Virus record (IMG/VR): IMGVR_UViG_3300027519_000001
Direction: 5' to 3' (one strand)
Source of the DNA: a virus
DNA: 64,000 nucleotides
Part shown: positions 13,713 to 55,706 of the stretch, piece after piece
Layout: every line of letters starts with the position of its first letter
Position numbering within the stretch: position 1 is the first letter of the stretch
Translations under genes and position numbers: made by a program
Notes under the pieces: generated by a model
What the model saw: the letters and a program-made list of their open reading frames with translations, nothing else
Told to the model about the DNA's origin: nothing
The model's database searches: none

Positions 13713-16700
13713 ATGACAACTACAAGACTAACAGTTCGTAATGCACAAGATAATGGTTGGCTCGACCAATGCAGCAGCGAGTTCTATTTCCGTGACGGGT
13801 TTAATAGTACGTGGATACGTTTTTATCCAGACCAAACACAAGTAAGAGATAGCGGAAACAACACTTGGATGCAGGTGGACTGTACTTTTGACGATGTACT
13901 AGACGACCCGTGTGCGAACCTAGCTATGCTTACTTCTCTTACTTGTTCTAACTCTATTCCAATTACAGAAGCAGGTTCTGGTGATGGTAGTGGTAGCGGT
14001 GGAAACGAGTTTGATATACTACGTGGATATCCAGAAGGCTACGACTTACCAGACGCAGGTCAAGCAGGCTTTGGACTAGAGAGAGCTTATGGTACGTATG
14101 AAGGGCAAGTTATCAACAGACCTGGAATCGAAAACACAAAAGAAACGTACACTAAGCCGGGCACTAATTCGTTCCTTGGAAGAGGTAGCTATGAAAATCC
14201 TAGTTATCTATCCACTCATACATTTTCTAATGGAAGTGCTATCACTGAAACAATTTATGAGTTAGGTGACAGAGGTGGTATATTTGAAATTCTTTATGCT
14301 TGTTACCATGAACAAGGTATCTCTATCGATGTATACTATCTTGGTGCGTTAATTGCTTCCACATGTGGCAGAGTTACGGGTAGAGGAAAACTAGAGTTCG
14401 GTCTAGACCCTGCAATTGGTTCTGGTGAAGACAGAGTAATGATACGAGTTCGCGGTGAAGACAAGTGCAGATGGATGTATTCCACTATAGGCCCTAAGTC
14501 ATTTCTTACTCTTCAAGATTTTGAACCCGGCAACAATAGACACTTAGCGCAAGTTCGTACTACTGAGTATATTGGTACTAGCTTGTTTCCAGCACCTGCG
14601 CATAGCCGTGTAACTCCATTCGAGAACAGAATTACAGATGGACAATATTGGGTAGAGTACGTTCACACAGTTGGACTAGTTGACCCTGCTACAGGTCCTT
14701 ATATTCTTCATCTTAATTATGAGACTTGGGAAAATTCAGACTGGGTTGAAGTCTATCACGGCGGTGAACGTATTGCTTCAACTATGGGAAATAAAGACAC
14801 TGACGGATTACTATCTATTGTGTTCGACCCTTGGAGATTTGCAAACGCTGTTCCTGATATCGTAGTTAAAGTAATGGCTAGACAGCGCGAGTACGGAGCA
14901 GATATACTTTCACAAGAGTACATGCTTTACGATCCAAATACTCGTGGATACAAAGAAAATCGTTGGCCGTGTGAAGTACCAGAGTCAGGTATAAATAGTG
15001 CTGGACACCACAGTACAGAAGACCATTATTTAATGAATGACCTCGATAACGGAGTAGCTTCAATTAAAGTTACTGGATATGGAGACTTTACTTATACTGC
15101 TAGCGTATTTAACAAGAAAGGTGAATTGATAACTGCTAAACGTAGCAGAGGTACGACTTTCTTACAGTGGTTCAGACTTGAAGAAGATGTAGGCTATGAA
15201 GACTTGCGAGAAATCAGTGTACGTATCGATTGCCCTATTGACAGCAGTTGGGCTTATTGGGTTGGCTGTTATATTCCTCTCCTAGATGTAGAGATTGATG
15301 ATCAGGAAGTTCCAAACTGTCCTGACGTTCAAATAGCTATCAACAGTATCACAGTAGCGGAAGGTTCTACAGCTAAATTTACAGTAGGTCTTAACTATCC
15401 AATTGACGAAGACTTGTCTTTGAATTACAGAACGGAAGATATGACTGCTAGTAGCGAAGCCGTTGCAGCAGGCGAAGTTAACCCGTACCCTCTTTTCAGA
15501 GATAACAATGATGTATCTTCGGTTGTCTACTCAGATGACGATTTAGGATATACATTGATGTTAGAGGCTGACCCTCATAGACTATACGACATTGACAATT
15601 ACTTACAAACTGCTACTACTCAGAATGCTACTGATGGAAGAAGTGACGTAGACCGCAGCGTATCAACGTATGCCGAACTTAATGACTATCAGAAGATGAT
15701 AGTTAACATGTTGAAGCACCGTCTTGGTTCTTTATCTAATAAAAAGCTTTTAGTGGTAACCCACCAGCGTATTCAATACTATGCAACTCCGTATGACCCT
15801 GATCCAAGGGTGGAAGAGCGAGAGTATGAAATAGTTTACCAAATGTCTACAGTTATGGACTTCTTCACTAAGTCACTGACAAACATTTACGGTATTCAGG
15901 TTGATGTTCATGTAGTTAATGAGTTTGACTCGCATGGTACAGTTAAGCAAGGCAGCTTTACTAATCAAGATGCAACCTATAGCTCGCCTAAAAATATTGT
16001 AGGTAACTATGATATTATTGTATCTGATCAGTTTAGTGAGTGGAGACACCACGTTAAAGAAAATGCAGGAGTAGATACTTCTAATCATTTCTTGAATAAG
16101 ATGTTTAGTCTTGAACAAGGTACTGCTTTTGGTGTTGCTGTAGCTAGAGCAGCTAAAGGTTCTAAACCTATGGTAGTGATTAGCGCAGCAGCTTTCGATA
16201 TCAGTACCGCAGGTAACTACTATAGATTTGCAAATGCTCATGCGAAAGACCTTATAAACTCTTTCAACATAAAAAGTCATGTAGACATATTAGCGTCAGA
16301 TTCTACTATTAGTAGTCCGTCTGGTGCGCGTAGTGTATCTGTTCAGCAAATAAAAGACAAAGCAGGCGATAGCTATCTATTTGAAGACTTGTCTGGGTCG
16401 GGTTCATTTGAAAACCAAAGCGGTGTTAAAAGAATGACAAAGTTCGTTCTTGCTAACACAGGTTCAGATGGAAGCCCTTCTACACCTATAGCTAATGCTG
16501 ACTATCAAGCCAAGACAGGAACTTTAACTATTCCAGCAGGCGCAGGTAGTGGTACTATTAGCGTCAATACTTTTGCGGACAGTGAACGTGACCCGAATGA
16601 GCAATTTAAAGTTATCATCTACGATGCGAGCGTTGGAGCTATAATTCAAGATGAAGGCATTGCTACTATTGTAGAATCTTCTGCCCCTGTTCAAGGAGAT

Positions 16701-17810
16701 ATGAACATTGTGTACACTGGAACTCTTAGAAGTACTGGTACTGCAAAAGTTACTGCAACTAAGTACGCACACCCTGAAACTATTCTAGCTTTCAAGATTA
16801 ACTCTAACAAGTTAGATATGGATTGGGGTTCAGACGGTGACTTGGGTGATGGTGTTCCCGAATACTCAGAAGACAATGGAAAAGTATCTGTATTCACTAT
16901 GTCTAAAACTGCGGATAGTGCTACAAGTGGAGTCGATGACAAAGCAGCAGGTACTAACTGGACTAGTAGACTATTAGCGGAATTTGAATTTGACCCAGCG
17001 CGTTCTTATACCTATAAGTGGAACGTTGTTACAGTTAACAATTCAATTCCAGGCTCACGCGTATCAGTTAAGCCTTACTGTGCCTTTGATGAATCCAAAG
17101 AAACATCGACGGTACATAGTAATGTTTCTAACTACAGCGCTAATAACCAATGCATGAGTATTCAGTTTGAACGTGCGGTTTCTAATTCGAGCTTAGCAGG
17201 AATTGCCAATTTAACAGTAGAGATATTCGTTAAAGACGACTTAGGCAATATACAAAAGTCTTCACCTATAGAAGTGAGCTTGCAGCAAAAAGCACAAGTT
17301 TACTCAGGCGGTGGCGGTGGTGGTTGTATATCTTTTGGAACAATGGTCGTGCTAGAAGATGGAAAGACTATCAACGCTGAAAGACTTAAAGTAGGTGATA
17401 AGGTAGTAGGTGAATACATTCCAAATATGATTGACGAAAACGTCGAAGGCTGGGAAGATTGGACGACTGAATCCGTTAATGGAAGATATCCTGTAGTAAG
17501 TACTGTTAGAGCAGTTAAGCATGATTGGTTCAGAGAGTATTGGGTTATCAACGGTGATGTGGAAATAACTGAACAGCATCATATATTTGTTAAGCGTAAC
17601 GATACTTGGCAATGGATGGACGTTAGGGATATACGTATCGGCGATAAACTTCTTTCTATTTACGAAGATAAAGAGATAGTTGTTGGTACGTTAAACCGAA
17701 TAGACGATCCTATTGATGTAGTGTGCTTAGATGTAGAAGAAAACGACTGCTACTATGTAGGTAAGAATCCTTTCTTGGTGCATAACATTAATTACGAGAG
17801 AGCAAAGTAA
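13713..17810 (+). CDS. giant structural/adhesin-like protein with interrupted Calx-beta, PKD-like domain and C-terminal Hint domain (1365 aa)
   Basis: Calx-beta halves at aa 538-581 and 927-990. YTYKW...LTVEIFVKDDLGN is PKD-like. GGGGGGC is followed by Hint blocks ending LVHN. Confidence 0.8.
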   Translation: MTTTRLTVRNAQDNGWLDQCSSEFYFRDGFNSTWIRFYPDQTQVRDSGNNTWMQVDCTFDDVLDDPCANLAMLTSLTCSNSIPITEAGSGDGSGSGGNEFDILRGYPEGYDLPDAGQAGFGLERAYGTYEGQVINRPGIENTKETYTKPGTNSFLGRGSYENPSYLSTHTFSNGSAITETIYELGDRGGIFEILYACYHEQGISIDVYYLGALIASTCGRVTGRGKLEFGLDPAIGSGEDRVMIRVRGEDKCRWMYSTIGPKSFLTLQDFEPGNNRHLAQVRTTEYIGTSLFPAPAHSRVTPFENRITDGQYWVEYVHTVGLVDPATGPYILHLNYETWENSDWVEVYHGGERIASTMGNKDTDGLLSIVFDPWRFANAVPDIVVKVMARQREYGADILSQEYMLYDPNTRGYKENRWPCEVPESGINSAGHHSTEDHYLMNDLDNGVASIKVTGYGDFTYTASVFNKKGELITAKRSRGTTFLQWFRLEEDVGYEDLREISVRIDCPIDSSWAYWVGCYIPLLDVEIDDQEVPNCPDVQIAINSITVAEGSTAKFTVGLNYPIDEDLSLNYRTEDMTASSEAVAAGEVNPYPLFRDNNDVSSVVYSDDDLGYTLMLEADPHRLYDIDNYLQTATTQNATDGRSDVDRSVSTYAELNDYQKMIVNMLKHRLGSLSNKKLLVVTHQRIQYYATPYDPDPRVEEREYEIVYQMSTVMDFFTKSLTNIYGIQVDVHVVNEFDSHGTVKQGSFTNQDATYSSPKNIVGNYDIIVSDQFSEWRHHVKENAGVDTSNHFLNKMFSLEQGTAFGVAVARAAKGSKPMVVISAAAFDISTAGNYYRFANAHAKDLINSFNIKSHVDILASDSTISSPSGARSVSVQQIKDKAGDSYLFEDLSGSGSFENQSGVKRMTKFVLANTGSDGSPSTPIANADYQAKTGTLTIPAGAGSGTISVNTFADSERDPNEQFKVIIYDASVGAIIQDEGIATIVESSAPVQGDMNIVYTGTLRSTGTAKVTATKYAHPETILAFKINSNKLDMDWGSDGDLGDGVPEYSEDNGKVSVFTMSKTADSATSGVDDKAAGTNWTSRLLAEFEFDPARSYTYKWNVVTVNNSIPGSRVSVKPYCAFDESKETSTVHSNVSNYSANNQCMSIQFERAVSNSSLAGIANLTVEIFVKDDLGNIQKSSPIEVSLQQKAQVYSGGGGGGCISFGTMVVLEDGKTINAERLKVGDKVVGEYIPNMIDENVEGWEDWTTESVNGRYPVVSTVRAVKHDWFREYWVINGDVEITEQHHIFVKRNDTWQWMDVRDIRIGDKLLSIYEDKEIVVGTLNRIDDPIDVVCLDVEENDCYYVGKNPFLVHNINYERAK
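17325..17786 (+). other. Hint (intein/Hedgehog/BIL-type) domain
   Basis: Cys1205 (tgt 17325-17327) follows six Gly. CISFGTMVVLEDG, ITEQHH (TxxH), VVCLDVEENDCYYVG, FLVHN. Seven aa (INYERAK) follow, and the +1 residue is Ile. Confidence 0.8.
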
Positions 17811-21137: not shown

Positions 21138-21980
21138 ATGTCGTTAACTAAAGTCAACCTAAAAATGATATCACCTTCGCCGGGTTCGGAAGCTGGCGAT
21201 ACTGTTTACAATACAAAGCAGGGTTTGCAAACACAAAATCCTGCCGAACAAACTTCTAGCATGATTGAAAAGTTCGATGCGGAGTTTGATAAGCAGTCAG
21301 GCGTGTTGTCTATCACTATCAATAATAGAACAGTACGCGTTGCAGGAATTCCAACAGAGCTTAACTTACCATCTGGACCTATTGGACCTCGTGGTAAAGA
21401 AGGTCAGCCTGGAATCTCTGGTAGAAATGGACGTGACGGACCCAAAGGGGAACAAGGGTGTATCGGACCTAAAGGAGATAGAGGTCCTCGTGGAGCTACA
21501 GGCCCAACTGGTGAACGTGGTATCCAAGGAGTTATTGGACCTATAGGCCCAACTGGTTCTACAGGCCCAACTGGTGAACGTGGTATAGACGGTGAAGAGC
21601 CAGAATATTTTGCTGGTGTACGTAACGAAGAAGGCTCACATTCATTTATTGAAGTAGATGGAGAGGGAAATACTACACAAGGTCGTTCACCGTATGTACG
21701 TGCAATTCGTAGTGGTGCAATGCATCAGTGGGGTAGATTTATTAATGATACTGGTACAGAAGAAGTAACTGTATTGTTTTCTGAACCATTCAAAAATCGT
21801 GTTACAGGCCTAATGGTATTCTTCAATGACCCGTATTCATATCAAAGTCAGAACTACGAGTTTGGTACGTATATTGATATTGATAGCGACATAGGTGGCT
21901 TTACTATTGGTGTTAAAGGAACTTTTAGTTTGCCTCTATCAGATTTATGGGACTTTAATTGGGTTGCATTTGGAGATTAA
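21138..21980 (+). CDS. collagen-like fibre protein with globular C-terminal domain (280 aa)
   Basis: 25 GXY triplets. It has the same N-terminal module (FDKQSGVLSITI..VAGIPT) as the three collagen-like genes at 10.6-13.7 kb. Confidence 0.85.
   Translation: MSLTKVNLKMISPSPGSEAGDTVYNTKQGLQTQNPAEQTSSMIEKFDAEFDKQSGVLSITINNRTVRVAGIPTELNLPSGPIGPRGKEGQPGISGRNGRDGPKGEQGCIGPKGDRGPRGATGPTGERGIQGVIGPIGPTGSTGPTGERGIDGEEPEYFAGVRNEEGSHSFIEVDGEGNTTQGRSPYVRAIRSGAMHQWGRFINDTGTEEVTVLFSEPFKNRVTGLMVFFNDPYSYQSQNYEFGTYIDIDSDIGGFTIGVKGTFSLPLSDLWDFNWVAFGD
21375..21599 (+). repeat. collagen-like GXY tract (25 triplets)
   Basis: G80 to E154, with Gly at every third residue. Contains G-C-I-G-P. Confidence 0.95.
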
Positions 21981-29705: not shown

Positions 29706-30056
29706 ATGGATGTAATTGACCTACTCGGACCTATAGCTAATTATTCTTGGGGCTATATACTTCTTAGCTTCTCAGTAACTATCTTGGGTACACTGGTACA
29801 CTACGTTAAGAAGTGTATTAAACTTGAGGCAGACTGGAATACATACTGGTCTAAAAATAAACCTCAGACAATTACAGCTATCTTTGCAGTACTTGGATCA
29901 TACTTTACAATCTTGTATACAGAAGCAGATCCAAGTTTGCTGACCTTCATAGCAGTAGGTTACGCAATAGATAGTATGTTTAACAAAGCACCACCAAGCT
30001 CTAAAGTCCCTAAGCGAAGAGCTAGTGATGCGTTTAGACAGGATGATACTCAATGA
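29706..30056 (+). CDS. holin candidate (116 aa, three predicted TM helices, charged C-tail)
   Basis: WGYILLSFSVTILGTLVHYV, TITAIFAVLGSYFTILY and LLTFIAVGYAIDSMF, followed by KVPKRRASDAFRQDD. Confidence 0.55.
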   Translation: MDVIDLLGPIANYSWGYILLSFSVTILGTLVHYVKKCIKLEADWNTYWSKNKPQTITAIFAVLGSYFTILYTEADPSLLTFIAVGYAIDSMFNKAPPSSKVPKRRASDAFRQDDTQ

Positions 30057-30376
30057 CTGAGTGGTTTAAGCGCTGGTGGAAAGCGATATTAGCGGGTCTC
30101 GGTTTGATACTGTCGGGGCTTGCTATTGCTCTTACTGCTGGCAAGAAAGGAACAAAGGTTTCAGACCTTGAAAAGTCTATTAGAGATATAGACGATGAAC
30201 AAATGAAAGAAGAATTGGAGATTCACAAGGAGGTTAACAAAGCTCTACACAAAGAGCGAGAAGAACTTGCTGAACTCAATGATGAAGTACACAAGCAAAT
30301 AAAACAAATGCCTAAGTATGATCCTGAACTATCAGACGTTGATAACCTGAAAAAGATTGCAGAGTCCAAATGGTAA
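30053..30376 (+). CDS. i-spanin-like or antiholin-like membrane protein (107 aa)
   Basis: N-terminal TM segment AILAGLGLILSGLAIALTA, followed by a charged coiled-coil region. ATGA coupling. Confidence 0.5.
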   Translation: MTEWFKRWWKAILAGLGLILSGLAIALTAGKKGTKVSDLEKSIRDIDDEQMKEELEIHKEVNKALHKEREELAELNDEVHKQIKQMPKYDPELSDVDNLKKIAESKW

Positions 30377-30948
30377 AGAAGTTATTAGTGGTGTTGTCGT
30401 TAGCAATAGCCGGGTGTGCCTCCAATCCACAAGAAGTCACCAAAACTCCAAGTATCCAAAAAGAACTCTTTGATATAGAGCTTCTATCTCATGAACCTGT
30501 TAAACCCATTCCTTATCCAGAAGATTTAGAGCAACGAATTAAAGCAGCTACAGTAGTGCGCAAAACGTATGATCAAAACTTTGAGTTGTACCAAGAAGTA
30601 CACGTAGGGACCGAAGAAACTAATACAGATAAATTGCCTATTGCAGACCGTAATGACGAACTGTTTATATTGGTAGACACAGAGACAGTGTTTAAGATAA
30701 GGGATGCTGTAGTTTCTGCAAGAGATAATGGAAAGCTTGTAGAGAAACTTGATAAGATTCAAGAACTGAATATAGAAGAAAGGAATCAAATACTCCGTAT
30801 GCTTAGGCTAGAGTATATGCATAGTAAAAGAATGGAAGAATTCAATGAGTACTACAAGGATGAAATTAAACGCCAAGAAACAAGTAGTAGAATAGACTCG
30901 TTAACTTGGCGAATAATTGCAGTACTGTCTTTAGCCGTAGCTATTTAA
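30370..30948 (+). CDS. lipoprotein with C-terminal TM anchor (u-spanin-like architecture, 192 aa)
   Basis: Lipobox LAIAGC at residues 11-16. C-terminal hydrophobic tail LTWRIIAVLSLAVAI. The start overlaps the upstream stop (ATGGTAA). Confidence 0.6.
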   Translation: MVKKLLVVLSLAIAGCASNPQEVTKTPSIQKELFDIELLSHEPVKPIPYPEDLEQRIKAATVVRKTYDQNFELYQEVHVGTEETNTDKLPIADRNDELFILVDTETVFKIRDAVVSARDNGKLVEKLDKIQELNIEERNQILRMLRLEYMHSKRMEEFNEYYKDEIKRQETSSRIDSLTWRIIAVLSLAVAI

Positions 30949-31041: not shown

Positions 31042-31341
31042 TCACCTGTACGGTCTTGTATCGTAAGTCATTTTGATATTGCCCGGCTTTCTTTCGAGAC
31101 TATCGAAAACATATTGAGCTTTCGCTCTGTCCCCAAAATATCCCGATATAAAACACACTCCATTGACAAAGAATGCTCGACCTGGACGCATAACAAAATT
31201 GTACTTGTAATGTTCATATAGCCCATCAAGCTGAACACCATTGAAGATATACGATTCATTCAAGTACAGACCTATCGTTGTGACTATTTCAGTATCGCAA
31301 CAACTGTCCTCTATTAGGTCCATTCTGCTTAATGCTTCCAT
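31042..31341 (-). CDS. hypothetical protein (about 100 aa)
   Basis: The track ORF 31042..31521 overlaps the endolysin gene by 233 nt. Internal ATGs at 31341 and 31323 reduce the overlap to 53 or 35 nt. Confidence 0.45.
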   Translation of the reverse strand: MEALSRMDLIEDSCCDTEIVTTIGLYLNESYIFNGVQLDGLYEHYKYNFVMRPGRAFFVNGVCFISGYFGDRAKAQYVFDSLERKPGNIKMTYDTRPYR

Positions 31342-31858
31342 GAACCCATCCTGAGTTAGTTCCTCGTTCTGGTCTGTAGAATTCAAGAATGAGTTGATCG
31401 AACTGGAGGTTGTCTCTACACCAGTCGAACAACACTTGGTTCGATAAGCCTGCGAGTTCGAAATCGACGGCCATGCCCTTAGGATGTTGTTTGCGTTCAT
31501 AATACTCTCTCCACTCTTCATGGAAAATCTCTGGCAGAATATAAAGAGTTGGATACTTGCGATAAGTATTTTTATCTACACCCTCTACACCTTTGCGCAT
31601 AAGCTTGTTAAAAAATGATTCAGCACAAAGAACATATTCTAGTTCTTCACAGCGAAACCAGCTATTAGGACTGAAAGGTCTACGTGTCCAACTGCGCACA
31701 GGTTCAAGAATCTTTTCCGCTGTATATGCAGCACAGTCAAGAATCTGTTCTGTAATTGGAGTCGCATTGTCGATACCTAAACGCTGCGCTTCGTAGCTCT
31801 TGAATACTTCTTTAAACTTAAAGTGGGTTGAAACTTTATAATCTGGATCACGAATCAT
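31289..31858 (-). CDS. endolysin, peptidase M15 (VanY / L-Ala-D-Glu peptidase type)
   Basis: QHPKGMAVDFE fits the HxxGxAxD zinc motif, with a distal GWVHGS His. Confidence 0.8.
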   Translation of the reverse strand: MIRDPDYKVSTHFKFKEVFKSYEAQRLGIDNATPITEQILDCAAYTAEKILEPVRSWTRRPFSPNSWFRCEELEYVLCAESFFNKLMRKGVEGVDKNTYRKYPTLYILPEIFHEEWREYYERKQHPKGMAVDFELAGLSNQVLFDWCRDNLQFDQLILEFYRPERGTNSGWVHGSIKQNGPNRGQLLRY

Positions 31859-32401: not shown

Positions 32402-32776
32402 CTACACTTCTAACTCAGGGTCATCACCCTTCAAACTGCTATAGACTCGCATAAGTGCAGATGTAAAGCTTTCATCTGAGACAACAAATGCGTCGAACAA
32501 ATCAGGGTCTGTAGGATAAACGTGAATGTTAATCAGGTTTTCATACTTCCCTATAGTCAAATTAACACCATCAAGAACAGATGCATAATTATCCGGCAAG
32601 CTAGATACTTCTGATAGTACATCTGGATTTAGATTAGAACTAATACCATGAATCATACCTATGAAACCCACCAGCATTTCCAGCTTTGGATTCAAGTTTC
32701 TATACTGCCCTAACGCATCCAGTGCATCTAATAACGACTGATTGGTTTCTTTCAAAGACTGGTCTAATGAAGGCAT
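32402..32776 (-). CDS. hypothetical protein (124 aa)
   Basis: ORF beginning 4 nt after the stop of the peptidase gene. Confidence 0.6.
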   Translation of the reverse strand: MPSLDQSLKETNQSLLDALDALGQYRNLNPKLEMLVGFIGMIHGISSNLNPDVLSEVSSLPDNYASVLDGVNLTIGKYENLINIHVYPTDPDLFDAFVVSDESFTSALMRVYSSLKGDDPELEV

Positions 32777-32780
32777 AAAT

Positions 32781-33497
32781 TTATCCCTCTAGTTTGACTT
32801 GGTAGGTCTTAGTGTTTGCGTTTGTATTCGGGTCTAGCAAGCTAGTTGCACGAACAGCATTAGATAGTAGGAAAGGAATGTCGTGATACTTATCCAATGC
32901 ACCCGTTAAGAAGGCTTCGATGTTTGTCTCTGTACCAATTTGTTCTAGTGAACCTAGTACTGCACCAATTGCAATTCTAGAGCCAGAGCCTATACCAAGA
33001 AGTTTACCTTTCGCTACACTACCATCCGATGTTATATGGAACAAGCCGTGTGGAGTAGCTATTAAACAGTCCGCGTAAGTATCGGTACTGCATTCAGATT
33101 CAGAGCCTAGAACACAAGAGTTGTGCTTCACTGCAAGAGTAAGCATTTTCCAAAACAAAGATAGACCTTCAAAATTTAAAGCTTCTTTTGAAAAGTCGCT
33201 GGCTTGGTCTTGATCTAAGTCGAGGAAGTACAGCAAGCTATAGTACTCAAAAGAGTTTTCTTTTATTCCTAAAGCGTTAAATGCTTCAATGGAATTAAAC
33301 CCGCCTGCCTGAATTTGAATAAGAACACGCTTTACCAGATGTGTAACGTCAGCGTATCCAGAAAAGCAAATATAGTTCTTTCCTACACTAAATGCCTTCT
33401 GAGTAGTTTCGCTGCCTATATAGTTCATTCCAGTCAATCTTGAATCTACACAAAGATGAACACTATCTTTGCTTTGAATTCCTATACCCGTTGTCAT
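32781..33497 (-). CDS. HslV / proteasome beta-type (family T1, Ntn) threonine peptidase homologue (238 aa)
   Basis: MTTGIGIQSKDSVHLCVDSRLT...TQKAF. After Met removal this gives Thr1, Asp17 and Lys33 in the exact proteasome register. LLGIGSGSRIAIGAVLG supplies the GSG motif. Confidence 0.75.
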   Translation of the reverse strand: MTTGIGIQSKDSVHLCVDSRLTGMNYIGSETTQKAFSVGKNYICFSGYADVTHLVKRVLIQIQAGGFNSIEAFNALGIKENSFEYYSLLYFLDLDQDQASDFSKEALNFEGLSLFWKMLTLAVKHNSCVLGSESECSTDTYADCLIATPHGLFHITSDGSVAKGKLLGIGSGSRIAIGAVLGSLEQIGTETNIEAFLTGALDKYHDIPFLLSNAVRATSLLDPNTNANTKTYQVKLEG

Positions 33498-34270
33498 ACC
33501 TTAGCTCCTGCTTTAGATAGAACTACATCGATATCAAGTCCACATCGTTGTGCAATATCTGTTAAAGTAGTGATTTGGTTTTCAATCTCTTGACGTTTAT
33601 ACTTAGGCCAAGACCCAGACTCTTTATTGTACTTTTCAATTAAAGGAGTAAGAGTTTGAAGAACAACCCAATCATTAGAAAATTGATTCGTGGAAATTAA
33701 CTGCTTCATTTTATCCAAGATGTTATAGTCAGCCGATGAAGTGTCGTACATAATAGATGCTAGTACGTTTCTAGGTATTTCAATCCATACTTCGTCTTTT
33801 GGAGGCTCGAATGCAGGATTCATCTGACTGTCTAACTTATCGAACACAGCAACTACAGGAAACACCGTACTGTTTCTAACTAGAAATTGCGTCTGGGTTC
33901 TGTATTTACTGTTTGCGTATTCTGCATAGGTCTTAACGGTGTCATACAGAAAACTAAAATCGGTTGAAAGATTATCGAAAATAAGACTAAAAATCTTTTC
34001 GTTATGCTTAGACTTTGCTTTCATCTTATGCTTGTACATATCAGTACCTAGATAAGAGGTTGCTAGTCTGTTTCGATAAAACATTTCATTAGGAACGTGG
34101 TATTTTTCAAAAGCAGGGAACAAACCTGAGAACCCACGTATGTCCAAGTGTAGAGTGCAATCATATTTTCTTTTTAGTTCTATGAAGGCTCTACTTAATC
34201 TTTCTTTTTGCGCGTAGTTGTTCCAGCTATTGCAAAGCAACATCGGAACAAAATATCTAGTTATATGCAT
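33494..34270 (-). CDS. hypothetical protein (258 aa)
   Basis: ATG at 34270 (MHITRYF). The track start at 34327 is a TTG whose first 19 codons run through the hairpin. ATGA coupling to the peptidase gene. Confidence 0.65.
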   Translation of the reverse strand: MHITRYFVPMLLCNSWNNYAQKERLSRAFIELKRKYDCTLHLDIRGFSGLFPAFEKYHVPNEMFYRNRLATSYLGTDMYKHKMKAKSKHNEKIFSLIFDNLSTDFSFLYDTVKTYAEYANSKYRTQTQFLVRNSTVFPVVAVFDKLDSQMNPAFEPPKDEVWIEIPRNVLASIMYDTSSADYNILDKMKQLISTNQFSNDWVVLQTLTPLIEKYNKESGSWPKYKRQEIENQITTLTDIAQRCGLDIDVVLSKAGAKV

Positions 34271-36351: not shown

Positions 36352-36996
36352 TTATCTAAAGGTAGGTCCGTGAACCCACAAGTTAAGACAGAATCTTTCA
36401 CCACGCTCGATAGGGCTTACTGAATGTTCCAAGTAAGATGGAAATACAATAACGTTGCCCACGTCTTTGTCTGCGTCACCGTAAGCGCTTATATTTAAAG
36501 TACAACCGTCATATTCAGGTTTGTCAGACAGTTGCACAATAACAGTAAGCTTACGACGACTAATTGAACCTTCACCAATATCATTATGACCTACATAATG
36601 ACCGGGAACAGTGTTATCAGCGTTATGGTAATGTAGTAGATTAATAGTCTCTTCAATACCGTACAGGTCAAACTCAAAGTATTTGTTTGCCGACTCTATG
36701 ATAACTTCAAGCTCTGCATAGACTTCACCAATAAGCTCTTGAAGTTTTTGTTGCTTCTCAGAACCTTCAAACACACCGTCAAACTTTTCTGAGTTGAAAT
36801 CAAAGGAGTACATATCTACTCTGCGAATAGAAAAGTCTTCTCTATCATCTTCGTTACCCTCAGCAGCAAGACCACCAGTATCTTTTTCAAAGTAGTGGAA
36901 GTTCTCGCGTAACCGCTTAACTAGGTCTTTATCGAAATCGAACTGCAATGCTGTAGACAGATAATTGTTTTCTTTTGCTAACTCTATGAAATACAT
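36352..36996 (-). CDS. 2OG-Fe(II) oxygenase, prolyl-4-hydroxylase-like (P4Hc / PF13640 type)
   Basis: GHNDIG (HxD), RRKLTVIVQLSD..EYDGCTL, and FPSYLEHSVSPIERGERFCL (distal His plus Arg). Confidence 0.75.
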   Translation of the reverse strand: MYFIELAKENNYLSTALQFDFDKDLVKRLRENFHYFEKDTGGLAAEGNEDDREDFSIRRVDMYSFDFNSEKFDGVFEGSEKQQKLQELIGEVYAELEVIIESANKYFEFDLYGIEETINLLHYHNADNTVPGHYVGHNDIGEGSISRRKLTVIVQLSDKPEYDGCTLNISAYGDADKDVGNVIVFPSYLEHSVSPIERGERFCLNLWVHGPTFR

Positions 36997-36997
36997 T

Positions 36998-38083
36998 TTA
37001 AACCCAAAACAATTGATTAAATTCTAAGTCTTCTTTCCAACGCTTTAGTGCAGCATTGTCAGGCTTACCCATTTTCAACTTGCTAAGAGACAATGGAACG
37101 TTCTTAACATCAGTTTTAATTCTAGCAAGCTTTCTGCTTACTTCGAAATTAGGACAAGGAACAGGTTCTTTTAAAGTAGGATGATCTACTTTCTTTCCTT
37201 TCTCGTTCACAATCTTTACAGGCTGTGGAACACCAGCAGCAGTAAGCGCTACTTTTCTATCGGGATGACCTGTAATGCGACCGTGCTTCTCAATTATGTT
37301 ATCGAGACTTCCCCAGCGGTCAAGAAGCTTGATAGCAGTAGTTGCACCACAACCTGGGATACCAGCAATGTTGTCAACTTTATCACCATCCATAATTAGA
37401 TAGTCAACGTACTGGTGGGGATGAAGACCGTCTTGCCCGTACATATTATTTTTAGTGTACAGTTTAGCTGGTGAGTTTTGTTGTTCAGGTTGCCATAACC
37501 GAATATGATGCTTAGTCAATAACTGCTTGAAGTCTTTGTCTCGACTATGAATCATTCGAAGACAACCTTTCAATTTCCAAGCAAGTGTACCAAGTATATC
37601 ATCGGCTTCGACAGGTTGATTAATCATGCGGCCGTCTAGTATAGTAAATCCAGCTAGCTTGCACAACGTTTTACAAATTTCAATCTGTTCGTGTAAGTCT
37701 TCATACGTATGTTCACTTACTTTACGATTGCCTTTATAAGATCGTTCTTCTTTCTTTGGAAAGAGAGCCTCTACTAATTCAGGTTCTTCTTTTGCCCACT
37801 TAGTAAAAACATCATATCGAAACGTTTCTTTACGTGGAATGTCAAAACAGATAACAATATACGGTACTTGCTTCTTAGACTGAATAAGAGTATACAGACC
37901 GTTTACCATGTTAATAAACCCTTTCACACCGTTGGTAGGAATACCATCTGACGTATGAAGAACAGGAGTAGCATAGTAAGCTCGATTGACCCAGTTGTTA
38001 CCATCTATTAAATGCACTATTGGAAGTCGTGCTTTGACTTGTGGTTGTTTCTTTGCCTTCTTAGAGGCTCCAAATTCGCGCAT
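36998..38083 (-). CDS. 5'-3' exonuclease / flap endonuclease (Pol I N-terminal domain type)
   Basis: PIVHLIDGNNWVNRAYYA, PVEADDILGTLA and DNIAGIPGCGATTAIKLL (H3TH). It carries an 18 aa basic N-terminal extension. Confidence 0.85.
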   Translation of the reverse strand: MREFGASKKAKKQPQVKARLPIVHLIDGNNWVNRAYYATPVLHTSDGIPTNGVKGFINMVNGLYTLIQSKKQVPYIVICFDIPRKETFRYDVFTKWAKEEPELVEALFPKKEERSYKGNRKVSEHTYEDLHEQIEICKTLCKLAGFTILDGRMINQPVEADDILGTLAWKLKGCLRMIHSRDKDFKQLLTKHHIRLWQPEQQNSPAKLYTKNNMYGQDGLHPHQYVDYLIMDGDKVDNIAGIPGCGATTAIKLLDRWGSLDNIIEKHGRITGHPDRKVALTAAGVPQPVKIVNEKGKKVDHPTLKEPVPCPNFEVSRKLARIKTDVKNVPLSLSKLKMGKPDNAALKRWKEDLEFNQLFWV

Positions 38084-50101: not shown

Positions 50102-51016
50102 TTAATCTTCCAACCCGTCTTCTAAATCACCCAACTCAATTTCGTTGATGCCATTCTTGCTTCGACCTTTCGGCTTACGCTTAGCAGCAGATGAATTGTA
50201 TGAATGAGAAGCGAGTTCGTACTCACCTGTTTCCTCGGACATTTCAACATAGTTAGCAGTTCCAGATTCAATTGATTGCGCTATCTTTGTTAAGTCCATT
50301 ATGTTGTCGTTTGGACGAGCGCGGCGGGCTACTTTGTTAGAACGAACTACTTTACCAACATTGCTTACCAAACCGTTCAAGCCGTCTGAGTTAAGTTTGA
50401 AGTCTACATCTTTCATATCTTCTGGGCGTAGACGTTTTGGTGTTTCACGCTCACTCGGGTCGATACGCTTTCCTTTCTCAATCATAACTTCTTTGATTGG
50501 AGCAAAAGCTTCTACGCTGTAAATGCTAGGACCTTCGTGACCTGTGTTCTCATACCGTAAGACAGTCTTTCCATCGTCTGAGATAATTCGAACAGTGTTT
50601 TTGTCAGCGTTAACAACGCGACCTGTCATGAAGTTGCTCATGTAGTTAGCATTTGCTGTACCACGAAAACGAATATAAACAGGCTGCCACATATAAAACC
50701 CGTTCTTACGCGTAACAACTTCATTTAATAATGCACCAGCCATAGCTTTCAACTGACGCGGATTCATACCTTTAACACAACTAGCAATTTCTCTAAACCC
50801 ATCTTCCGCATCTTCTTCAAGAGCTTCGCGAATGATTGAGGGTTCAGCTTTAAACTTCGGACATGCACGGCTTGTAGCCATCATCCCTTCTTCTGAGCAA
50901 CTACTAACGTCACCGCCTATCAGATTTTCTACGTTTAGTCCTACGCATTCCCCACACGTTAGGTATCCCGTCGTGATTTCTCTTACTGGCAGTTGTACGT
51001 TGATTAAGTTCTTCAT
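50102..51016 (-). CDS. hypothetical protein with N-terminal Cys cluster (304 aa)
   Basis: ATG at 51016 with an AAGGA RBS 7 nt upstream. CGEC...C...C lies in the first 55 aa. Confidence 0.65.
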   Translation of the reverse strand: MKNLINVQLPVREITTGYLTCGECVGLNVENLIGGDVSSCSEEGMMATSRACPKFKAEPSIIREALEEDAEDGFREIASCVKGMNPRQLKAMAGALLNEVVTRKNGFYMWQPVYIRFRGTANANYMSNFMTGRVVNADKNTVRIISDDGKTVLRYENTGHEGPSIYSVEAFAPIKEVMIEKGKRIDPSERETPKRLRPEDMKDVDFKLNSDGLNGLVSNVGKVVRSNKVARRARPNDNIMDLTKIAQSIESGTANYVEMSEETGEYELASHSYNSSAAKRKPKGRSKNGINEIELGDLEDGLED

Positions 51017-51503
51017 TGCTGTATCCTTTAGTTCTTAATGTATAATGTATGCAATAATCGATAACTTGTGACATATTAGTTACGCCAGGCAAATCTTTCT
51101 TTAAACGATCTAACAACTCACGAGTTGGTAAATCTACCTCTGGATTCGCCAACTTAATTCGCTTCTCCCCATCTGATATAGGCGGATTAAGTAATGAACT
51201 AACTAATATCTCTAGATATGGTTGGGCTCTTTGTTCTGATTCCCAACTGTCCCAATATCTGCCCGGTGGCTCATTCCTATTTCCTCGCAAAAACGAAGCG
51301 GCTGCATCTGCTTTTGCATGGAGTGTTGTGTGACAGTCTCCGTCAATAGGAATCTGCAAGCTATCTTTTCCACCAAGGGCTTGCGGCGTAGTATGATGCC
51401 AATGGATGTTTCTAGTCCATTGATGACATATACAACATTTAGTGAAGTCACCATCTGTCTCAGGCGGTAACTTATTTACAACCGTCTTTGCGGTGTTAGA
51501 CAT
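50910..51503 (-). CDS. HNH endonuclease (197 aa)
   Basis: CCICHQWTRNIHWHHTTPQALGGKDSLQIPIDGDCHTTLH is an HNH core. The preferred ATG at 51503 overlaps the upstream stop by 8 nt. The 3' end overlaps the next gene by 107 nt. Confidence 0.7.
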   Translation of the reverse strand: MSNTAKTVVNKLPPETDGDFTKCCICHQWTRNIHWHHTTPQALGGKDSLQIPIDGDCHTTLHAKADAAASFLRGNRNEPPGRYWDSWESEQRAQPYLEILVSSLLNPPISDGEKRIKLANPEVDLPTRELLDRLKKDLPGVTNMSQVIDYCIHYTLRTKGYSNEELNQRTTASKRNHDGIPNVWGMRRTKRRKSDRR

Positions 51504-52902
51504 GTACTTTCCAAGGAAGACCCCAGCTAGTAACGATGTTCTGATCTCCATACAGAGATCGTACAACGTCTGCGACTTCACTAGGTACTAACCATGCTAT
51601 CAGTACATCTGATACACTAGGATGACTTTCATATTTGCTACTTAATAGAGAATAGCGATGACCTTTGTTATGAAACTCACCAAGTATATATCCAATATAC
51701 TGATCATAAGCTTTCTCGTTTAAAAGCTTTCTTTTCTTTCCCTCCTGTGTTTTAAGGTTTGATGTTCTGAATAGCTCACGCTTTAATAAAGTTATCTTGT
51801 GACGTTTGTGCTTTATTTGCGCTTCAAGCTTTTCAATGTCTCGCTCTAAGCTTTCGGCTGTGGCGGCAAATTCCGATACCCTTTCAGCGATTAGAGCTTG
51901 CGTCTTTTTATTAATCTTTGAAGAAGTTGTTGCATACTTTTCCATTTTAGACTGGGTTGCCTTCAAAGACTTACGCTTTTGTTTAAGCTGTTTAGATATA
52001 TCGCTGGAAGTAATCTCTTTAGACATTGCTTTAACTTTGTTTTCAAAGAACACCTGTGCTGCCTTTTTGCTGAACTGCAAAAGAACTTGGTCTTCTATAA
52101 TCAAAGCTACGTCGGCAACGTTGCTACTGCGAGTGGATATGTTAGTAAACTTAAAACCGAGTTGGTTAAGAACATCGGATTCTCGTAGTCTACCTTTTGA
52201 AAATGAAACGAATACAGGACAAACTGTAGGCAAGCTTGTTCCTGTCTCAACCATCCGTTTGTAGTCTGAGCTACTTTTGGTAAGAAGTTTTTGTTCGTGC
52301 TTTTTGTAAGCTAGAACCTTTTGGCTCGTTAGCTCTAGTGTTTCCACATCGTTCTCTTGAAGAGATTCCATTTCTGACCGAAGCATATCCTTCATATCAT
52401 CAGAGTCGTTTTCAGTTGTAACTTTCTTCAATGCTTCAACGAAAGCACTTTCTTGGTTTTTCTGATCAGATGCCTGACTGGCTAATTCGTCCATAGCGTA
52501 GATACGCTCACGGATGTTAGACCGAGCTTTAGCTTCTAACGCACTGGTTTTTGATAGAGTTTGGGAAGATTCGATCACACGTTGGATACGTGTTAAGAGG
52601 GTCAACCCTGACATAGTACGCGCTTCATTGAACGATAAGTCTTTTTCAAGTATACCGTGATGCATAGCGTCTATACAATGCAAGACTGAGCGAAGTTGTT
52701 TTGTAAGTGAACGTGGCTTGTTCTTTACCGACTTAGAAACATCGATAGATACATTAACTTCGGTTGATAGGTTTTCGAGTGCTGTAAGCACATTAGAGCG
52801 TTTGCGAAGTGGAGACTTTTCTGCTCTCATTTTAGACTGGAAATCTAAAACGCGATTAGAGACCTGCTCTAACGCCGAGAGTAGTTCAATTTGCTTTGTC
52901 AT
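51496..52902 (-). CDS. coiled-coil hypothetical protein (468 aa)
   Basis: Long ORF, first gene downstream of a near-consensus sigma70-type promoter. Confidence 0.65.
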   Translation of the reverse strand: MTKQIELLSALEQVSNRVLDFQSKMRAEKSPLRKRSNVLTALENLSTEVNVSIDVSKSVKNKPRSLTKQLRSVLHCIDAMHHGILEKDLSFNEARTMSGLTLLTRIQRVIESSQTLSKTSALEAKARSNIRERIYAMDELASQASDQKNQESAFVEALKKVTTENDSDDMKDMLRSEMESLQENDVETLELTSQKVLAYKKHEQKLLTKSSSDYKRMVETGTSLPTVCPVFVSFSKGRLRESDVLNQLGFKFTNISTRSSNVADVALIIEDQVLLQFSKKAAQVFFENKVKAMSKEITSSDISKQLKQKRKSLKATQSKMEKYATTSSKINKKTQALIAERVSEFAATAESLERDIEKLEAQIKHKRHKITLLKRELFRTSNLKTQEGKKRKLLNEKAYDQYIGYILGEFHNKGHRYSLLSSKYESHPSVSDVLIAWLVPSEVADVVRSLYGDQNIVTSWGLPWKVHV

Positions 52903-53021
52903 ATTATTTTATCCTTTGGAAAGCGCGAAGCTTGAATGGGATATTTCCCAAGTACCTTAAAGGTACGATGTTGCAAAAGCATAGTTCTAAATTATGATTT
53001 TCAGATACCACACTTTGCAAC

Positions 53022-53050
53022 ATTATATCACACATGAATATTGCTTTCAA
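53022..53050 (-). promoter_or_regulatory. sigma70-type promoter (minus strand)
   Basis: Read on the minus strand: TTGAAA (53050-53045), a 17 nt spacer ending in TGA (an extended -10 TG), then TATAAT (53027-53022). Confidence 0.65.
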
Positions 53051-53071
53051 TGTGTTTTGTCCCGCTATATT

Positions 53072-54655
53072 TTATTTAACACGGGACTTGTAGGCTTTGA
53101 ATTGCTCTTTTGTCTTAGTAGCAATTCTAGGCGTTGGATCTTCTTGGTCTTGCTTGTATTGTCGAATCTCTGCCTTTAACTCTTTAATCTTTTGAAGCAA
53201 TGCTGGCTTTTCCAACTTAGCTAGTTTACGAACTTGTAGGTCAAGTAAAGCCTTTGCTTTTTCAGCGGAGATTTTAAGTTTAGAAATAAGGAACTTATCA
53301 GGGTCCTTACTATCTAGTGACTTGATGATTAGCTGTCTGTTATCTACGCCAAAGATAAGAAGTTCAGTTCTATCGATTTGCGCTAAGCATTCATCTATCA
53401 AGGCTTGCAGGTAATCAATCTCTAACTGTACGCGATACTTAATCCAGTTATTGAAGAATGATACAAAGCTAGACTTAACAAACATGTTGGAGTCATCTGC
53501 TCTACGAACCGTAAAGCCTAAATCGTATGATTCGCTAGATACTAACTCTTTAAACACTTGCTCTGCTAAATCGAAGAACTTCTCTTCTGAAATTCCACGA
53601 GCAGGCTTTATATAGAAGTACGCACCAAGAGGCCCTGACTTAGGATTCTTTTCGTTTGAATCGTCACCAGCTTTAGATACTGCATCCATTTCTGCAAACT
53701 TAGCAAGCTTTTTCTGTATGACGTTTGAACTTCTAAAGCCTGGAGAGAAGGACTTAATCTCAATTAGTTTGTTCTTCCAGTCTGCATTTACTTCTGGTGC
53801 AAACTTGATACTTCCTTTGCCGTACTTAATAAGATTAGCAACGTCTTCGTCTTCGCTAACCTGAACACCACCGTAAGAATAGTCTATACGTAAATGCTTA
53901 GCACAGTTGTTAGGACCTAGTTTCTTATTAGCTTTGAACGCTTTCAATCCAAGAAGAACAAGTTCGTAAACTCCATCTATGTTAAACGGAGGGCTGTCAG
54001 ACTTAACACCAAAACCAATACCAGAGCTACCAAGAACAAGAAGCATAGGCAGCGTAGCAGGCAAGTACAACGGTACTTTCTCTGAGTTATCAAAGTTATC
54101 TACCATTGGAACAGTTTTGAGATAACCCTTATCCAATAGAAAGATATCACTCATTGCGCTAAGTCGTGCTTCTGTATAACGCATAGCAGCTTGGTTATCA
54201 ACAGGAGTACCCCAGTTACCTTGTCCATCTACCAATTGTGGAGATAGCTTATAGTTAACAAGAGTTGCCATTGCACCATAAGCAGCTTGGTCGCCGTGCG
54301 GGTGGTACTTACCAAGAACGTCACCGATAGTACGAGCAGACTTTTTATACTTAGACTTTGAGTTCAAGCCAAGGTTCTTCATAGCCCATAAAATGTAGCG
54401 GTGAACGGGCTTTAGTCCATCACGAAAATCTGTGATAGACCTTTCTTCTACAACGTAGCTACCATATTGTTTTAACGATGTTGCTGCAAAAGAATCTATA
54501 GATATAGAATCTTCTGAGGTCGCTGCCTTACTAGGTGCTTTTCTGCGAGTACCAGTTTTTGTCTTATCACGTAAAGCAGATAAGCTACTTCTTTTTCTCG
54601 TTCTTTTTCTTGCTGGTGGGCTTTCCGCCTCAGTAGCAGACTTTCTTCTTCTCAT
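53072..54655 (-). CDS. type II DNA topoisomerase, cleavage-religation subunit (T4 gp52 / GyrA N-terminal type, 527 aa)
   Basis: RDGLKPVHRYILWAM and YHPHGDQAAYGAM. AMRYTEARL contains the catalytic Tyr. There is no GyrA beta-pinwheel CTD. About 50 aa of basic N-terminal extension. Confidence 0.9.
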   Translation of the reverse strand: MRRRKSATEAESPPARKRTRKRSSLSALRDKTKTGTRRKAPSKAATSEDSISIDSFAATSLKQYGSYVVEERSITDFRDGLKPVHRYILWAMKNLGLNSKSKYKKSARTIGDVLGKYHPHGDQAAYGAMATLVNYKLSPQLVDGQGNWGTPVDNQAAMRYTEARLSAMSDIFLLDKGYLKTVPMVDNFDNSEKVPLYLPATLPMLLVLGSSGIGFGVKSDSPPFNIDGVYELVLLGLKAFKANKKLGPNNCAKHLRIDYSYGGVQVSEDEDVANLIKYGKGSIKFAPEVNADWKNKLIEIKSFSPGFRSSNVIQKKLAKFAEMDAVSKAGDDSNEKNPKSGPLGAYFYIKPARGISEEKFFDLAEQVFKELVSSESYDLGFTVRRADDSNMFVKSSFVSFFNNWIKYRVQLEIDYLQALIDECLAQIDRTELLIFGVDNRQLIIKSLDSKDPDKFLISKLKISAEKAKALLDLQVRKLAKLEKPALLQKIKELKAEIRQYKQDQEDPTPRIATKTKEQFKAYKSRVK

Positions 54656-54686
54656 TGGAAAAACCTTTAAGTATAAAGTTAGTTCT

Positions 54687-54699
54687 TATTTACAGTTTT
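54687..54699 (-). promoter_or_regulatory. copy 3 of motif AAAACTGTAAATA
   Basis: It lies 31 nt upstream of the topoisomerase subunit ATG and overlaps the stop (54698-54700) of the upstream ORF. Confidence 0.55.
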
Positions 54700-55234
54700 A
54701 GCAATCACTACAAACTACGTGATCAGTGTCAGTACTTTCACCACTTGGATTGCCGTGAAGCGACGGACAAGCTTTAACACTTATATCTCTAAACAGTTTG
54801 TACAAATCAATATATTCAGGATTAGGAATTGTGAATGGCTCACCCTCTTGCCAAAATTTCTGATAGTGAGAATGTGATTTAAAAGGGCTCGTTTTAATCC
54901 AGTTCTCAGTATTAACAAACTCGTTGAAACCTTCCTCTACGTGAACACACTTCGAAACAAGGTCTTCGTAAGTAGGAGGTAGCAACTTCTTTCCAGTAAG
55001 ATTAAGAGCTTTGCCAAACTTACGGACTGTCCTATCATTTGTTATAACTATGCGAGAACGATACAAAGTAGAAATTGACCCAGGTACTATTATTTGCTTA
55101 GAGTCTTCATCGACAAAAGCAGGCAAGCTAAACCAGCGTTGTGTATGTGCATGGTTAATAGGACGTGACCCAGGGTCTAAGTACAAAAGAACTTTACCAT
55201 CAAATTCTGTTTTTGAAATCTCATGTATACTCAT
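54698..55234 (-). CDS. hypothetical protein (178 aa)
   Basis: ORF between the two topoisomerase genes. Confidence 0.6.
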   Translation of the reverse strand: MSIHEISKTEFDGKVLLYLDPGSRPINHAHTQRWFSLPAFVDEDSKQIIVPGSISTLYRSRIVITNDRTVRKFGKALNLTGKKLLPPTYEDLVSKCVHVEEGFNEFVNTENWIKTSPFKSHSHYQKFWQEGEPFTIPNPEYIDLYKLFRDISVKACPSLHGNPSGESTDTDHVVCSDC

Positions 55235-55698
55235 AGTTCCAACTCTGCTCCTGATATAATAGATTTTAAAAGGGAATTATCATACGGATACTTTTCAATC
55301 TGCTGTCTGAACTTTGCTATGCTACCGTAAACTCTTCTAATAGTTTCTATAGCTGTCTTCTTACTTGTTTTTTCTTTCCAGTCCCAAAGACCGTCAGTTG
55401 TATTCAAGCAGATGCCTTCAACAAATTCCATTTCATATCCATAGTATTCAACTCCCTCAATATCTTTATTGTACGAACATTTATAGATTGTTCCATCTTT
55501 ACCTATAACGAAAGGACAGATTACAGATAGTGCAAACGTTGGAAATACAAGTTCATCGTTCATCAGATGTAAAGTAGCACTAACCCAAGTAGGTTTAGAA
55601 ATATTCATGTTGTACATTCCGCTAGTCGAATCATCGTAAAGCGAAGTAAACACAATATCTACTATCATAAAAACTTCAACAAGGTTTACACTATCCAT
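55231..55698 (-). CDS. hypothetical protein (155 aa)
   Basis: ORF with ATGA coupling. Confidence 0.6.
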   Translation of the reverse strand: MDSVNLVEVFMIVDIVFTSLYDDSTSGMYNMNISKPTWVSATLHLMNDELVFPTFALSVICPFVIGKDGTIYKCSYNKDIEGVEYYGYEMEFVEGICLNTTDGLWDWKEKTSKKTAIETIRRVYGSIAKFRQQIEKYPYDNSLLKSIISGAELEL

Positions 55699-55706
55699 AG
55701 TAACTC

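Follow-up and report, generated by a model that had tools for sequence, protein, structure and literature searches.

Can a proteasome-type peptidase serve a phage that shows no unfoldase of its own? The question is raised by a gene in the IMG/VR virus record IMGVR_UViG_3300027519_000001, of which we analyzed a stretch of 64,000 nucleotides (here called the window). Its predicted product of 238 aa resembles members of the proteasome superfamily. The explanation that we favor, with a probability of roughly 0.6, is that the gene would encode a stand-alone T1 N-terminal-nucleophile (Ntn) peptidase and would be a dispensable accessory gene of an uncultured marine jumbo phage of the Phage NCTB lineage.

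Similarity to the proteasome superfamily and the predicted active site

The product starts with MTTGIGIQSKDSVHLCVDSRLTGMNYIGSETTQK, i.e., M-TTGIG, and its similarity to the proteasome superfamily is more than chance. Its match to Pfam PF00227 (Proteasome), in an alignment that covers residues 2 to 63 only, scores 34.7 bits (E value of 1.8e-8), where the gathering score is 22.4. It also matches phrog_1040 ("peptidase HslV family") over residues 1 to 236 with an E value of 6.4e-10; bona fide members of phrog_1040 score 2.5e-36 against the same profile. When searched against PDB, a family profile built from three sequences retrieved the archaeal proteasome beta subunit 6z46_H (E value of 1.4e-8), with both halves of the protein aligned in two collinear stretches. 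The Betaproteobacteria proteasome homolog (BPH) was recovered through partial alignments, with E values of 2e-4 for 5ovu and 0.007 to 0.03 for 5ovs.

In profile alignments and in MAFFT alignments of the superfamily, T2, D18, K34, G47, S171, D222, and T225 correspond to Thr1, Asp17, Lys33, Gly47, Ser129, Asp166, and Ser169, respectively. All seven catalytic positions are unchanged in a relative that is only 27% identical. An earlier, sequence-only reading of this DNA had proposed the Thr1/Asp17/Lys33 register and a conserved GSG loop. The register is kept in the profile and multiple alignments and is invariant in the 27%-identical relative, while GSG is invariant in all alignments, with Ser171 in the place of Ser129. 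We read the product as a phage-encoded homolog of the T1, or proteasome-type, N-terminal threonine peptidases with an intact catalytic register.

The gene is real and under strong purifying selection: compared with the copy in a sibling phage, whose product is 94% identical, the ratio of nonsynonymous to synonymous substitution rates (dN/dS) is 0.065 to 0.068 at a dS of about 0.55, and its neighbors give similar values. The ATG is the earliest start downstream of the preceding in-frame stop; therefore, a propeptide is impossible. The TGA stop of the 258-aa open reading frame (ORF) that precedes the gene overlaps this ATG as ATGA, and a 124-aa ORF begins 4 nt past the peptidase stop, both as the sequence-only reading had described.

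An orphan subfamily with few relatives

An exhaustive phmmer search of 1.84 billion representative proteins returned four proteins at an E value of ≤1e-3. These are the 94%-identical copy of the sibling phage (P0001); a 228-aa protein that is 27% identical over its full length and carries the same insertion between helices H1 and H2 (P0002); a eukaryote-type beta5 subunit; and a short phage-borne homolog that represents the nearest outgroup (P0004). Among these 1.84 billion proteins, the long subfamily consists of this phage species and one 27%-identical relative. Word-indexed searches with the single sequence, the family profile, and a bridging superfamily profile gave no more relatives, returning only P0001, P0002, and P0004. 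No homolog of the peptidase was found by tblastn in GenBank phages, even at an E value of ≤10, and no match by megablast of the 5-kb block against the same phages. Nor was any relative found in 185,579 GTDB species genomes, and the further contigs that scans of IMG/VR, GTDB genomes, and JGI metagenomes brought up were all of the same phage species. phrog_1040 is the sole PHROG match for the protein and likewise for P0001, P0002, P0004, and the "HslV" protein of pSal-SNUABM-04. The best description places the protein in an orphan subfamily of HslV/BPH-like ("group I") proteasome homologs in phages, marked by its length and its insertion.

The block that holds the gene for P0004 (L010 3953..4498) is siphovirus-like and includes a tape-measure gene and one resembling a tail-terminator gene. 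P0004 is called as a protein of 167 aa without an N-terminal threonine. An in-frame GTG at position 3953, with GAGG 8 nt upstream, overlaps the stop of the preceding gene as GTGA; started at this GTG, the product would read M-TTLLVHQANGRAWMASEG..., restoring Thr1 and Glu17.

Comparison with known proteasome-type proteins

With HslV, the protein shares the superfamily, an MTT start without a propeptide, and, presumably, the organization of a single-gene, homo-oligomeric peptidase. The sequence-only reading had labeled it HslV/proteasome-beta type and suggested a partnership with a host unfoldase. A phage HslV that docks on host HslU, or on a ClpX-type unfoldase, would form a hybrid ATP-dependent protease acting against host defense or regulatory proteins. 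Such a role would suit the HslV-like N terminus, the name of the matched PHROG, and the lack of a visible phage ATPase in the window. Yet the HslV equivalogs of NCBIfam (TIGR03692 and NF003964) are not matched at an E value of ≤1, and a comparison of E. coli HslV with the family profile by hhalign gives a probability of 2.9% over 28 columns. In PDB, archaeal beta subunits and BPH are closer to the protein than HslV is. Its pore loop, long and acidic, is like that of BPH, whereas the pore loop of HslV is short and has a basic cluster (PMC5777263). Moreover, BPH descends from HslV and has already lost the HslU-interface residues (PMC5777263), and the 40-aa insertion of our protein would lie on the H1-H2 face, where HslU binds. 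The HslV label is not supported by these comparisons: by sequence, the protein is not HslV in the strict sense. Co-option of host HslU is disfavored, and we assign it a low probability.

HslV is also distinguished by its hslU partner, whereas no hslU or other AAA+ gene was found within the 64-kb window. Among window ORFs of at least 80 aa, Walker A motifs occur only in the terminase and the DnaB helicase, and Pfam detected no AAA+ domain in the other large window ORFs that were scanned. What the sequence-only reading had observed for adjacent genes, namely, no Walker A protein, holds across the whole 64 kb. A separate search with canonical HslV retrieved mostly host-derived or contaminant records, which we rejected as evidence for phage HslV.

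The archaeal 20S beta subunit 6z46_H is the best overall profile match (E value given above); the N-terminal 60 residues align without gaps, and the active-site residues are shared. The only NCBIfam match, arc_protsome_B, reaches 29 bits, far under its cutoff of 224. The protein departs from 20S beta subunits in lacking a propeptide, an alpha-subunit gene, and a C-terminal H5 and in having the H1-H2 insertion.

BPH (5ovs, 5ovt, and 5ovu) has in common with our protein the lack of a propeptide, the Thr1/Asp17/Lys33 spacing, an equally long acidic pore loop, and the lack of a detected unfoldase partner. It is also the best solved match for the C-terminal half, although the similarity is marginal, with E values of 2e-4 to 7e-3. 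BPH is a tetradecamer that has no unfoldase, carries an acidic pore loop, and binds epoxomicin covalently (Fuchs et al. 2017, PMC5777263). BPH is compact and encoded in a bacterial stress operon, whereas this protein is phage encoded and carries an extra acidic H1-H2 insertion of about 36 aa.

At least 62 phage records in GenBank carry an annotated member of the phage "peptidase HslV family"; among them are jumbo phages of the SPN3US-like and Machina-like kinds and Klebsiella phages of 48 kb. Examples of these short proteins are SPN3US gp1, pSal-SNUABM-04 ORF1, and phiEaH2 gp185. We equate this phrog_1040 family with the PPH class of Fuchs, Alva, and Lupas (2021, PMC8665760), whose members are about 140 to 160 aa long and lack helix H2. 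Like our protein, the short proteins are phage borne, often in jumbo phages, and have an MTT start, a GSG loop, a D-x-x-T/S-G-G motif, and no phage HslU. They align with the C-terminal half of our protein with an hhalign probability of 85%. They differ in length (about 155 to 180 aa; this protein is about 80 aa longer) and in a compressed Thr1/Asp13/Lys29 spacing. They also have an extra loop after the lysine and lack H2 and the H3-H4 linker, both of which are present here. No cross-matches were found by tblastn between the short phrog_1040 group and the long subfamily.

The acidic insertion and the pore loop

The feature that sets the long subfamily apart is a contiguous insertion of about 35 to 42 aa between H1 and H2, which is missing from beta subunits, BPH, HslV, and the short phage family in our alignments. 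In P0002, its length is kept, some residues are invariant, and the net charge is -3. Both low-confidence structure models described below predict it as three short helices. Downstream of H2, the pore loop aligns without gaps with that of BPH (5ovs_A) and is acidic in both family members.

The sequence-only reading had attributed the length of the protein to an insertion of roughly 60 aa. The protein is indeed 62 aa longer than E. coli HslV (176 aa), but the contiguous insertion accounts for only the 35 to 42 aa given above; what remains of the excess is due to a longer H3-H4 linker and to a pore loop as long as that of BPH.

Known structures show HslU or the alpha-ring in contact with the H1/H2 face, and the ring-ring contacts are formed by H3/H4 (PMC8665760). 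An insertion on the H1/H2 face would make docking of HslU less likely and a built-in cap conceivable. Taken further, the insertion and the pore loop together could form a cap or substrate receptor on the face where HslU or the alpha-ring docks. The product would then be a self-gated protease that needs no unfoldase, or would represent the proteasome fold in a new quaternary form, and it would process or destroy specific host or phage proteins. We consider this stronger version unlikely.

Conserved flanking genes and the probable accessory status of the peptidase

The window is part of the genome of a large tailed phage, with genes for a baseplate wedge, collagen-like fibers, a portal, and a large terminase, as well as a DnaB-type helicase, a split type II topoisomerase, and a 5'-3' exonuclease. 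Its terminase shares 68% identity with the terminase of Phage NCTB (257,877 bp, from surface water) and about 49% with those of Dickeya JA11 and Erwinia jumbo phages. Peptidase copies of 94% identity occur, in the same gene order, on MDTB01024876.1 (243,275 bp) and on a 199,927-bp IMG/VR contig. The virus is an uncultured jumbo phage of the Phage NCTB lineage, and from the record names we infer that the contigs are marine.

The peptidase gene belongs to an array of co-directional genes that exceeds 30 kb; an exonuclease/2OG-oxygenase pair lies to one side of the gene and an M15 endolysin-like gene to the other. Promoter- and terminator-like sites occur in the window at the level of shuffled sequence; therefore, operon boundaries cannot be drawn. 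The five-to-six-gene operon of undescribed function that the sequence-only reading had outlined dissolves into this long array, which has no delimiting signals.

That reading had also suggested that the flanking proteins could serve as a cap or substrate adaptor. Under this scenario, the peptidase and the flanking 203-, 258-, 124-, and 183-aa proteins would form a new multicomponent system, with the neighbors acting as cap, gate, or adaptor. The tight packing of the genes and the ATGA overlap would be expected under this scenario. So would the gene order around P0002, whose 2.4-kb contig (L005) encodes proteins of 209 and 260 aa, the peptidase, and the next ORF. The flanks are homologous to the window 203-, 258-, and 124-aa proteins at 26 to 38% identity and stand in the same order, with the peptidase at an identical site. 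Phage NCTB tells a different story. Its flanks, in window order, encode 184, 258, 226, 208, and 193 aa, each homologous to its window counterpart. The 258-aa proteins are 29% identical (E value of 1e-40), and the N terminus of the 226-aa protein matches the window 124-aa protein with 39% identity (E value of 5e-28). Yet the gap between the two genes is 18 nt long and holds neither the peptidase nor a remnant of it. Since NCTB keeps all the flanks in the same order without the peptidase, these genes function without it, which argues against a dedicated cap or adaptor system. A check for co-occurrence of the neighbors, which the sequence-only reading had proposed, found their order kept with the peptidase in L005 and without it in NCTB.

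Other observations also speak against the multicomponent scenario. Synteny runs well past the block, from the exonuclease to the endolysin, and therefore reflects genome-wide collinearity rather than a module. The ATGA overlap is not kept in L005, and GenBank phages lack a peptidase homolog even at the permissive threshold given above. Profile searches of the flanking proteins against Pfam, PHROGs, NCBIfam, PADLOC, and PDB gave no significant match. A sub-threshold PDB match of the 258-aa family profile to the proteasome activator PA28gamma (E value of 0.1, 15.5 bits) would point toward a cap, but it is probably due to chance, as a bromodomain scores better (E value of 0.014) and was itself rejected as chance. 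We consider a multicomponent system very improbable.

How did the gene come to be present in some relatives and absent in others? The flanks of L005 and NCTB are 34 to 35% identical to each other, and each is 23 to 31% identical to the window flanks; the peptidase occupies the same site in the window and L005. The simplest history is that an ancestral peptidase gene was lost in NCTB, inferred here from a three-taxon comparison that cannot be rooted. Given such a loss, the peptidase would be a dispensable accessory gene.

The location of the gene, about 7.5 kb downstream of the portal gene and about 10 kb from the terminase gene on the same strand, raises another possibility, a prohead protease for virion maturation or another essential morphogenetic protease. 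This idea was rejected because the gene is missing from Phage NCTB, whose structural gene set is the same. In addition, the surrounding genes encode an exonuclease, an oxygenase, and an endolysin rather than head proteins, and a prohead protease of the Ntn type is, to our knowledge, without precedent. A morphogenetic role is hardly credible.

Two further observations concern the flanking genes. The 226-aa protein of NCTB (BN7874_110, L006 32535..33215), the homolog of the 124-aa protein, has an extra C-terminal extension of about 100 aa that is not in the window protein. Against the sibling phage, dS is 0.18 for the 258-aa gene and 0.52 to 0.58 for the 203-aa, peptidase, and 124-aa genes around it; this unevenness suggests recent recombination between sibling phages within the block.

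A proposed stand-alone peptidase and the points weighed against it

Drawing on what is known of HslV, BPH, and 20S beta subunits, we propose how a stand-alone peptidase might work. The host methionine aminopeptidase would remove Met1, exposing the amine and hydroxyl of Thr1. The subunits would assemble into 6- or 7-fold rings, probably a double ring, with the active sites facing the chamber. The acidic pore loop and the acidic insertion of about 40 aa would be located at the pore and on the outer (apical) face, where they would select substrates or gate their entry without ATP. The enzyme would then act, with no dedicated AAA+ unfoldase, on peptides or on host or phage proteins that lack structure or are loosely folded. 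Such an enzyme could contribute to host takeover, amino acid recycling, removal of defense proteins, or processing of phage proteins.

Several points weigh against this explanation. No peptidase activity of any phage proteasome homolog is reported in the literature that we searched. The window represents about a quarter of a genome of about 243 kb, and an unfoldase gene could lie elsewhere in the genome. Large insertions elsewhere in the proteasome superfamily are suspected to block ring formation (PMC8665760). The two AlphaFold (AF2) models have low confidence, with mean predicted local distance difference test (pLDDT) scores of 52 and 54 and predicted template modeling (pTM) scores of 0.53 and 0.45. 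The cause is an alignment that is too shallow, with only three or four usable sequences, and we did not rely on the geometry of the models. Foldseek searches with the weak model gave TM-scores of only 0.3 to 0.48. Given the low pLDDT and TM-scores, the fold, the ring assembly, and the position of the insertion are predicted rather than shown structurally. The order of secondary-structure elements in the models is compatible with an Ntn alpha-beta-beta-alpha sandwich, and the top 50 Foldseek matches listed consist entirely of BPH, HslV, and proteasome alpha or beta subunits. An Ntn fold is supported by the sequence comparisons.

The protein might instead be a noncanonical enzyme of the proteasome fold, such as a monomeric or open-ring sequence-specific protease, a connectase-like transpeptidase or ligase, or an amidase, with the insertion shaping its substrate specificity rather than a chamber. 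The superfamily is functionally versatile and insertions in it are suspected to block ring stacking (PMC8665760), the insertion of our protein is conserved and helical in the low-confidence models, and the subfamily is very isolated in sequence space, all of which would fit such an enzyme. In connectase, however, a two-helix insertion lies between S3 and S4 over the active site and the first helix pair is missing (PMC8665760). Here, residues 2 to 63 are collinear with beta-subunit residues 1 to 63, there is no S3-S4 insertion, and H1 is present. The full set of proteolytic residues is kept, including the equivalents of Ser129, Asp166, and Ser169, and the nearest characterized relatives, beta subunits and BPH, are ring proteases. 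We regard a noncanonical activity as quite unlikely and retain the stand-alone ring peptidase as the favored explanation.

Relation to phage proteasome homologs already described

The sequence-only reading had presented a phage proteasome homolog without an unfoldase as something new. Lone phage proteasome homologs have in fact been described (Fuchs et al. 2021, PMC8665760; PMC7823757), besides being annotated in the GenBank records counted above, and in published surveys none of the new proteasome homologs, those of phages among them, had an AAA+ partner (PMC8665760). One phage proteasome homolog, RAY gp116, localizes to the phage nucleus. We found no functional study of any such protein in the literature, and this localization is the only hint. 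What is new here is a rare architecture in which canonical active-site spacing is combined with a pore loop resembling that of BPH and with an acidic insertion that is conserved; as far as we could tell, the subfamily lies outside those of the 2021 catalog. Its canonical spacing may indicate an evolutionary link between BPH-like bacterial enzymes and the reduced phage ones. If the insertion is a built-in gate, the protein would offer a compact example of a proteasome-type chamber regulated without an ATPase. Its practical value is limited, as the phage is uncultured and at least one relative can dispense with the gene.

Feature coordinates and other regions of the window

The positions of the features discussed are collected in Table 1.

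Table 1. Features of the peptidase locus and of other annotated genes, numbered along the window
Feature	Position	Strand	Remarks
Peptidase gene	32781..33497	-	238 aa; PF00227 and phrog_1040 matches; proteasome-like N-terminal-threonine peptidase homolog (MEROPS T1)
AGGAG Shine-Dalgarno sequence	33505..33509	-	7 nt 5' of the peptidase ATG, within the 3' end of the 258-aa gene; read from the sequence
ATG-ACA codons (Met1-Thr2)	33492..33497	-	Thr aligned with Thr1 of beta subunits and BPH
Asp18-Lys34 segment	33396..33446	-	Asp18 codon 33444..33446, Lys34 codon 33396..33398; equivalent to Asp17/Lys33; invariant in P0001 and P0002
Acidic H1-H2 insertion, residues 64-103	33189..33308	-	Delimited by alignment gaps; net charge -6
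Acidic "pore loop" after H2, residues 128-144	33066..33116	-	17 aa, 4 acidic and 0 basic; length as in BPH
GSG loop, residues 170-174 (GSGSR)	32976..32990	-	Ser171 equivalent to Ser129; GSG invariant across all alignments
Residues 222-225 (D-P-N-T)	32823..32834	-	Equivalent to the Asp166...Ser169 motif (D-x-x-S/T-G-G in relatives)
258-aa conserved protein	33494..34270	-	Syntenic in L005 and Phage NCTB; not peptidase dependent
124-aa conserved protein	32402..32776	-	NCTB homolog directly follows the 258-aa gene
M15 endolysin-like gene	31289..31858	-	phrog_894, E value of 2e-16; 57% identical to the NCTB counterpart (193 aa)
GyrB-like gene	55707..57752	-	Topoisomerase piece
GyrA-like gene	53072..54655	-	Topoisomerase piece
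304-aa "DNA topoisomerase" PHROG member	50102..51016	-	Topoisomerase piece

The genes at 29706..30948 (+) and 31289..31858 (-) have the look of a lysis cassette split over convergent strands. Three small membrane ORFs on the plus strand within 29706..30948 face the M15 endolysin-like gene; the last of the three (30370..30948) has a lipobox (LAIAGC) at its start and a hydrophobic tail at its end and resembles a unimolecular spanin.

Also on the minus strand (36352..38083), a 214-aa 2OG-Fe(II) oxygenase is encoded directly downstream of the 5'-3' exonuclease, which is of the FEN or Pol I N-terminal type. The pair is also found in the sibling phage, and in NCTB the corresponding position is taken by an ORF of 208 aa that has no annotation. 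The oxygenase could have a role in DNA modification or repair.

The type II topoisomerase is apparently encoded in pieces (50102..57752, minus strand), with ORFs of unknown function interspersed. Two giant ORFs on the plus strand, 3317..8119 (1600 aa) and 13713..17810 (1365 aa), lie in the tail/baseplate region alongside genes for collagen-like fiber proteins (10586..12097 and 21138..21980).

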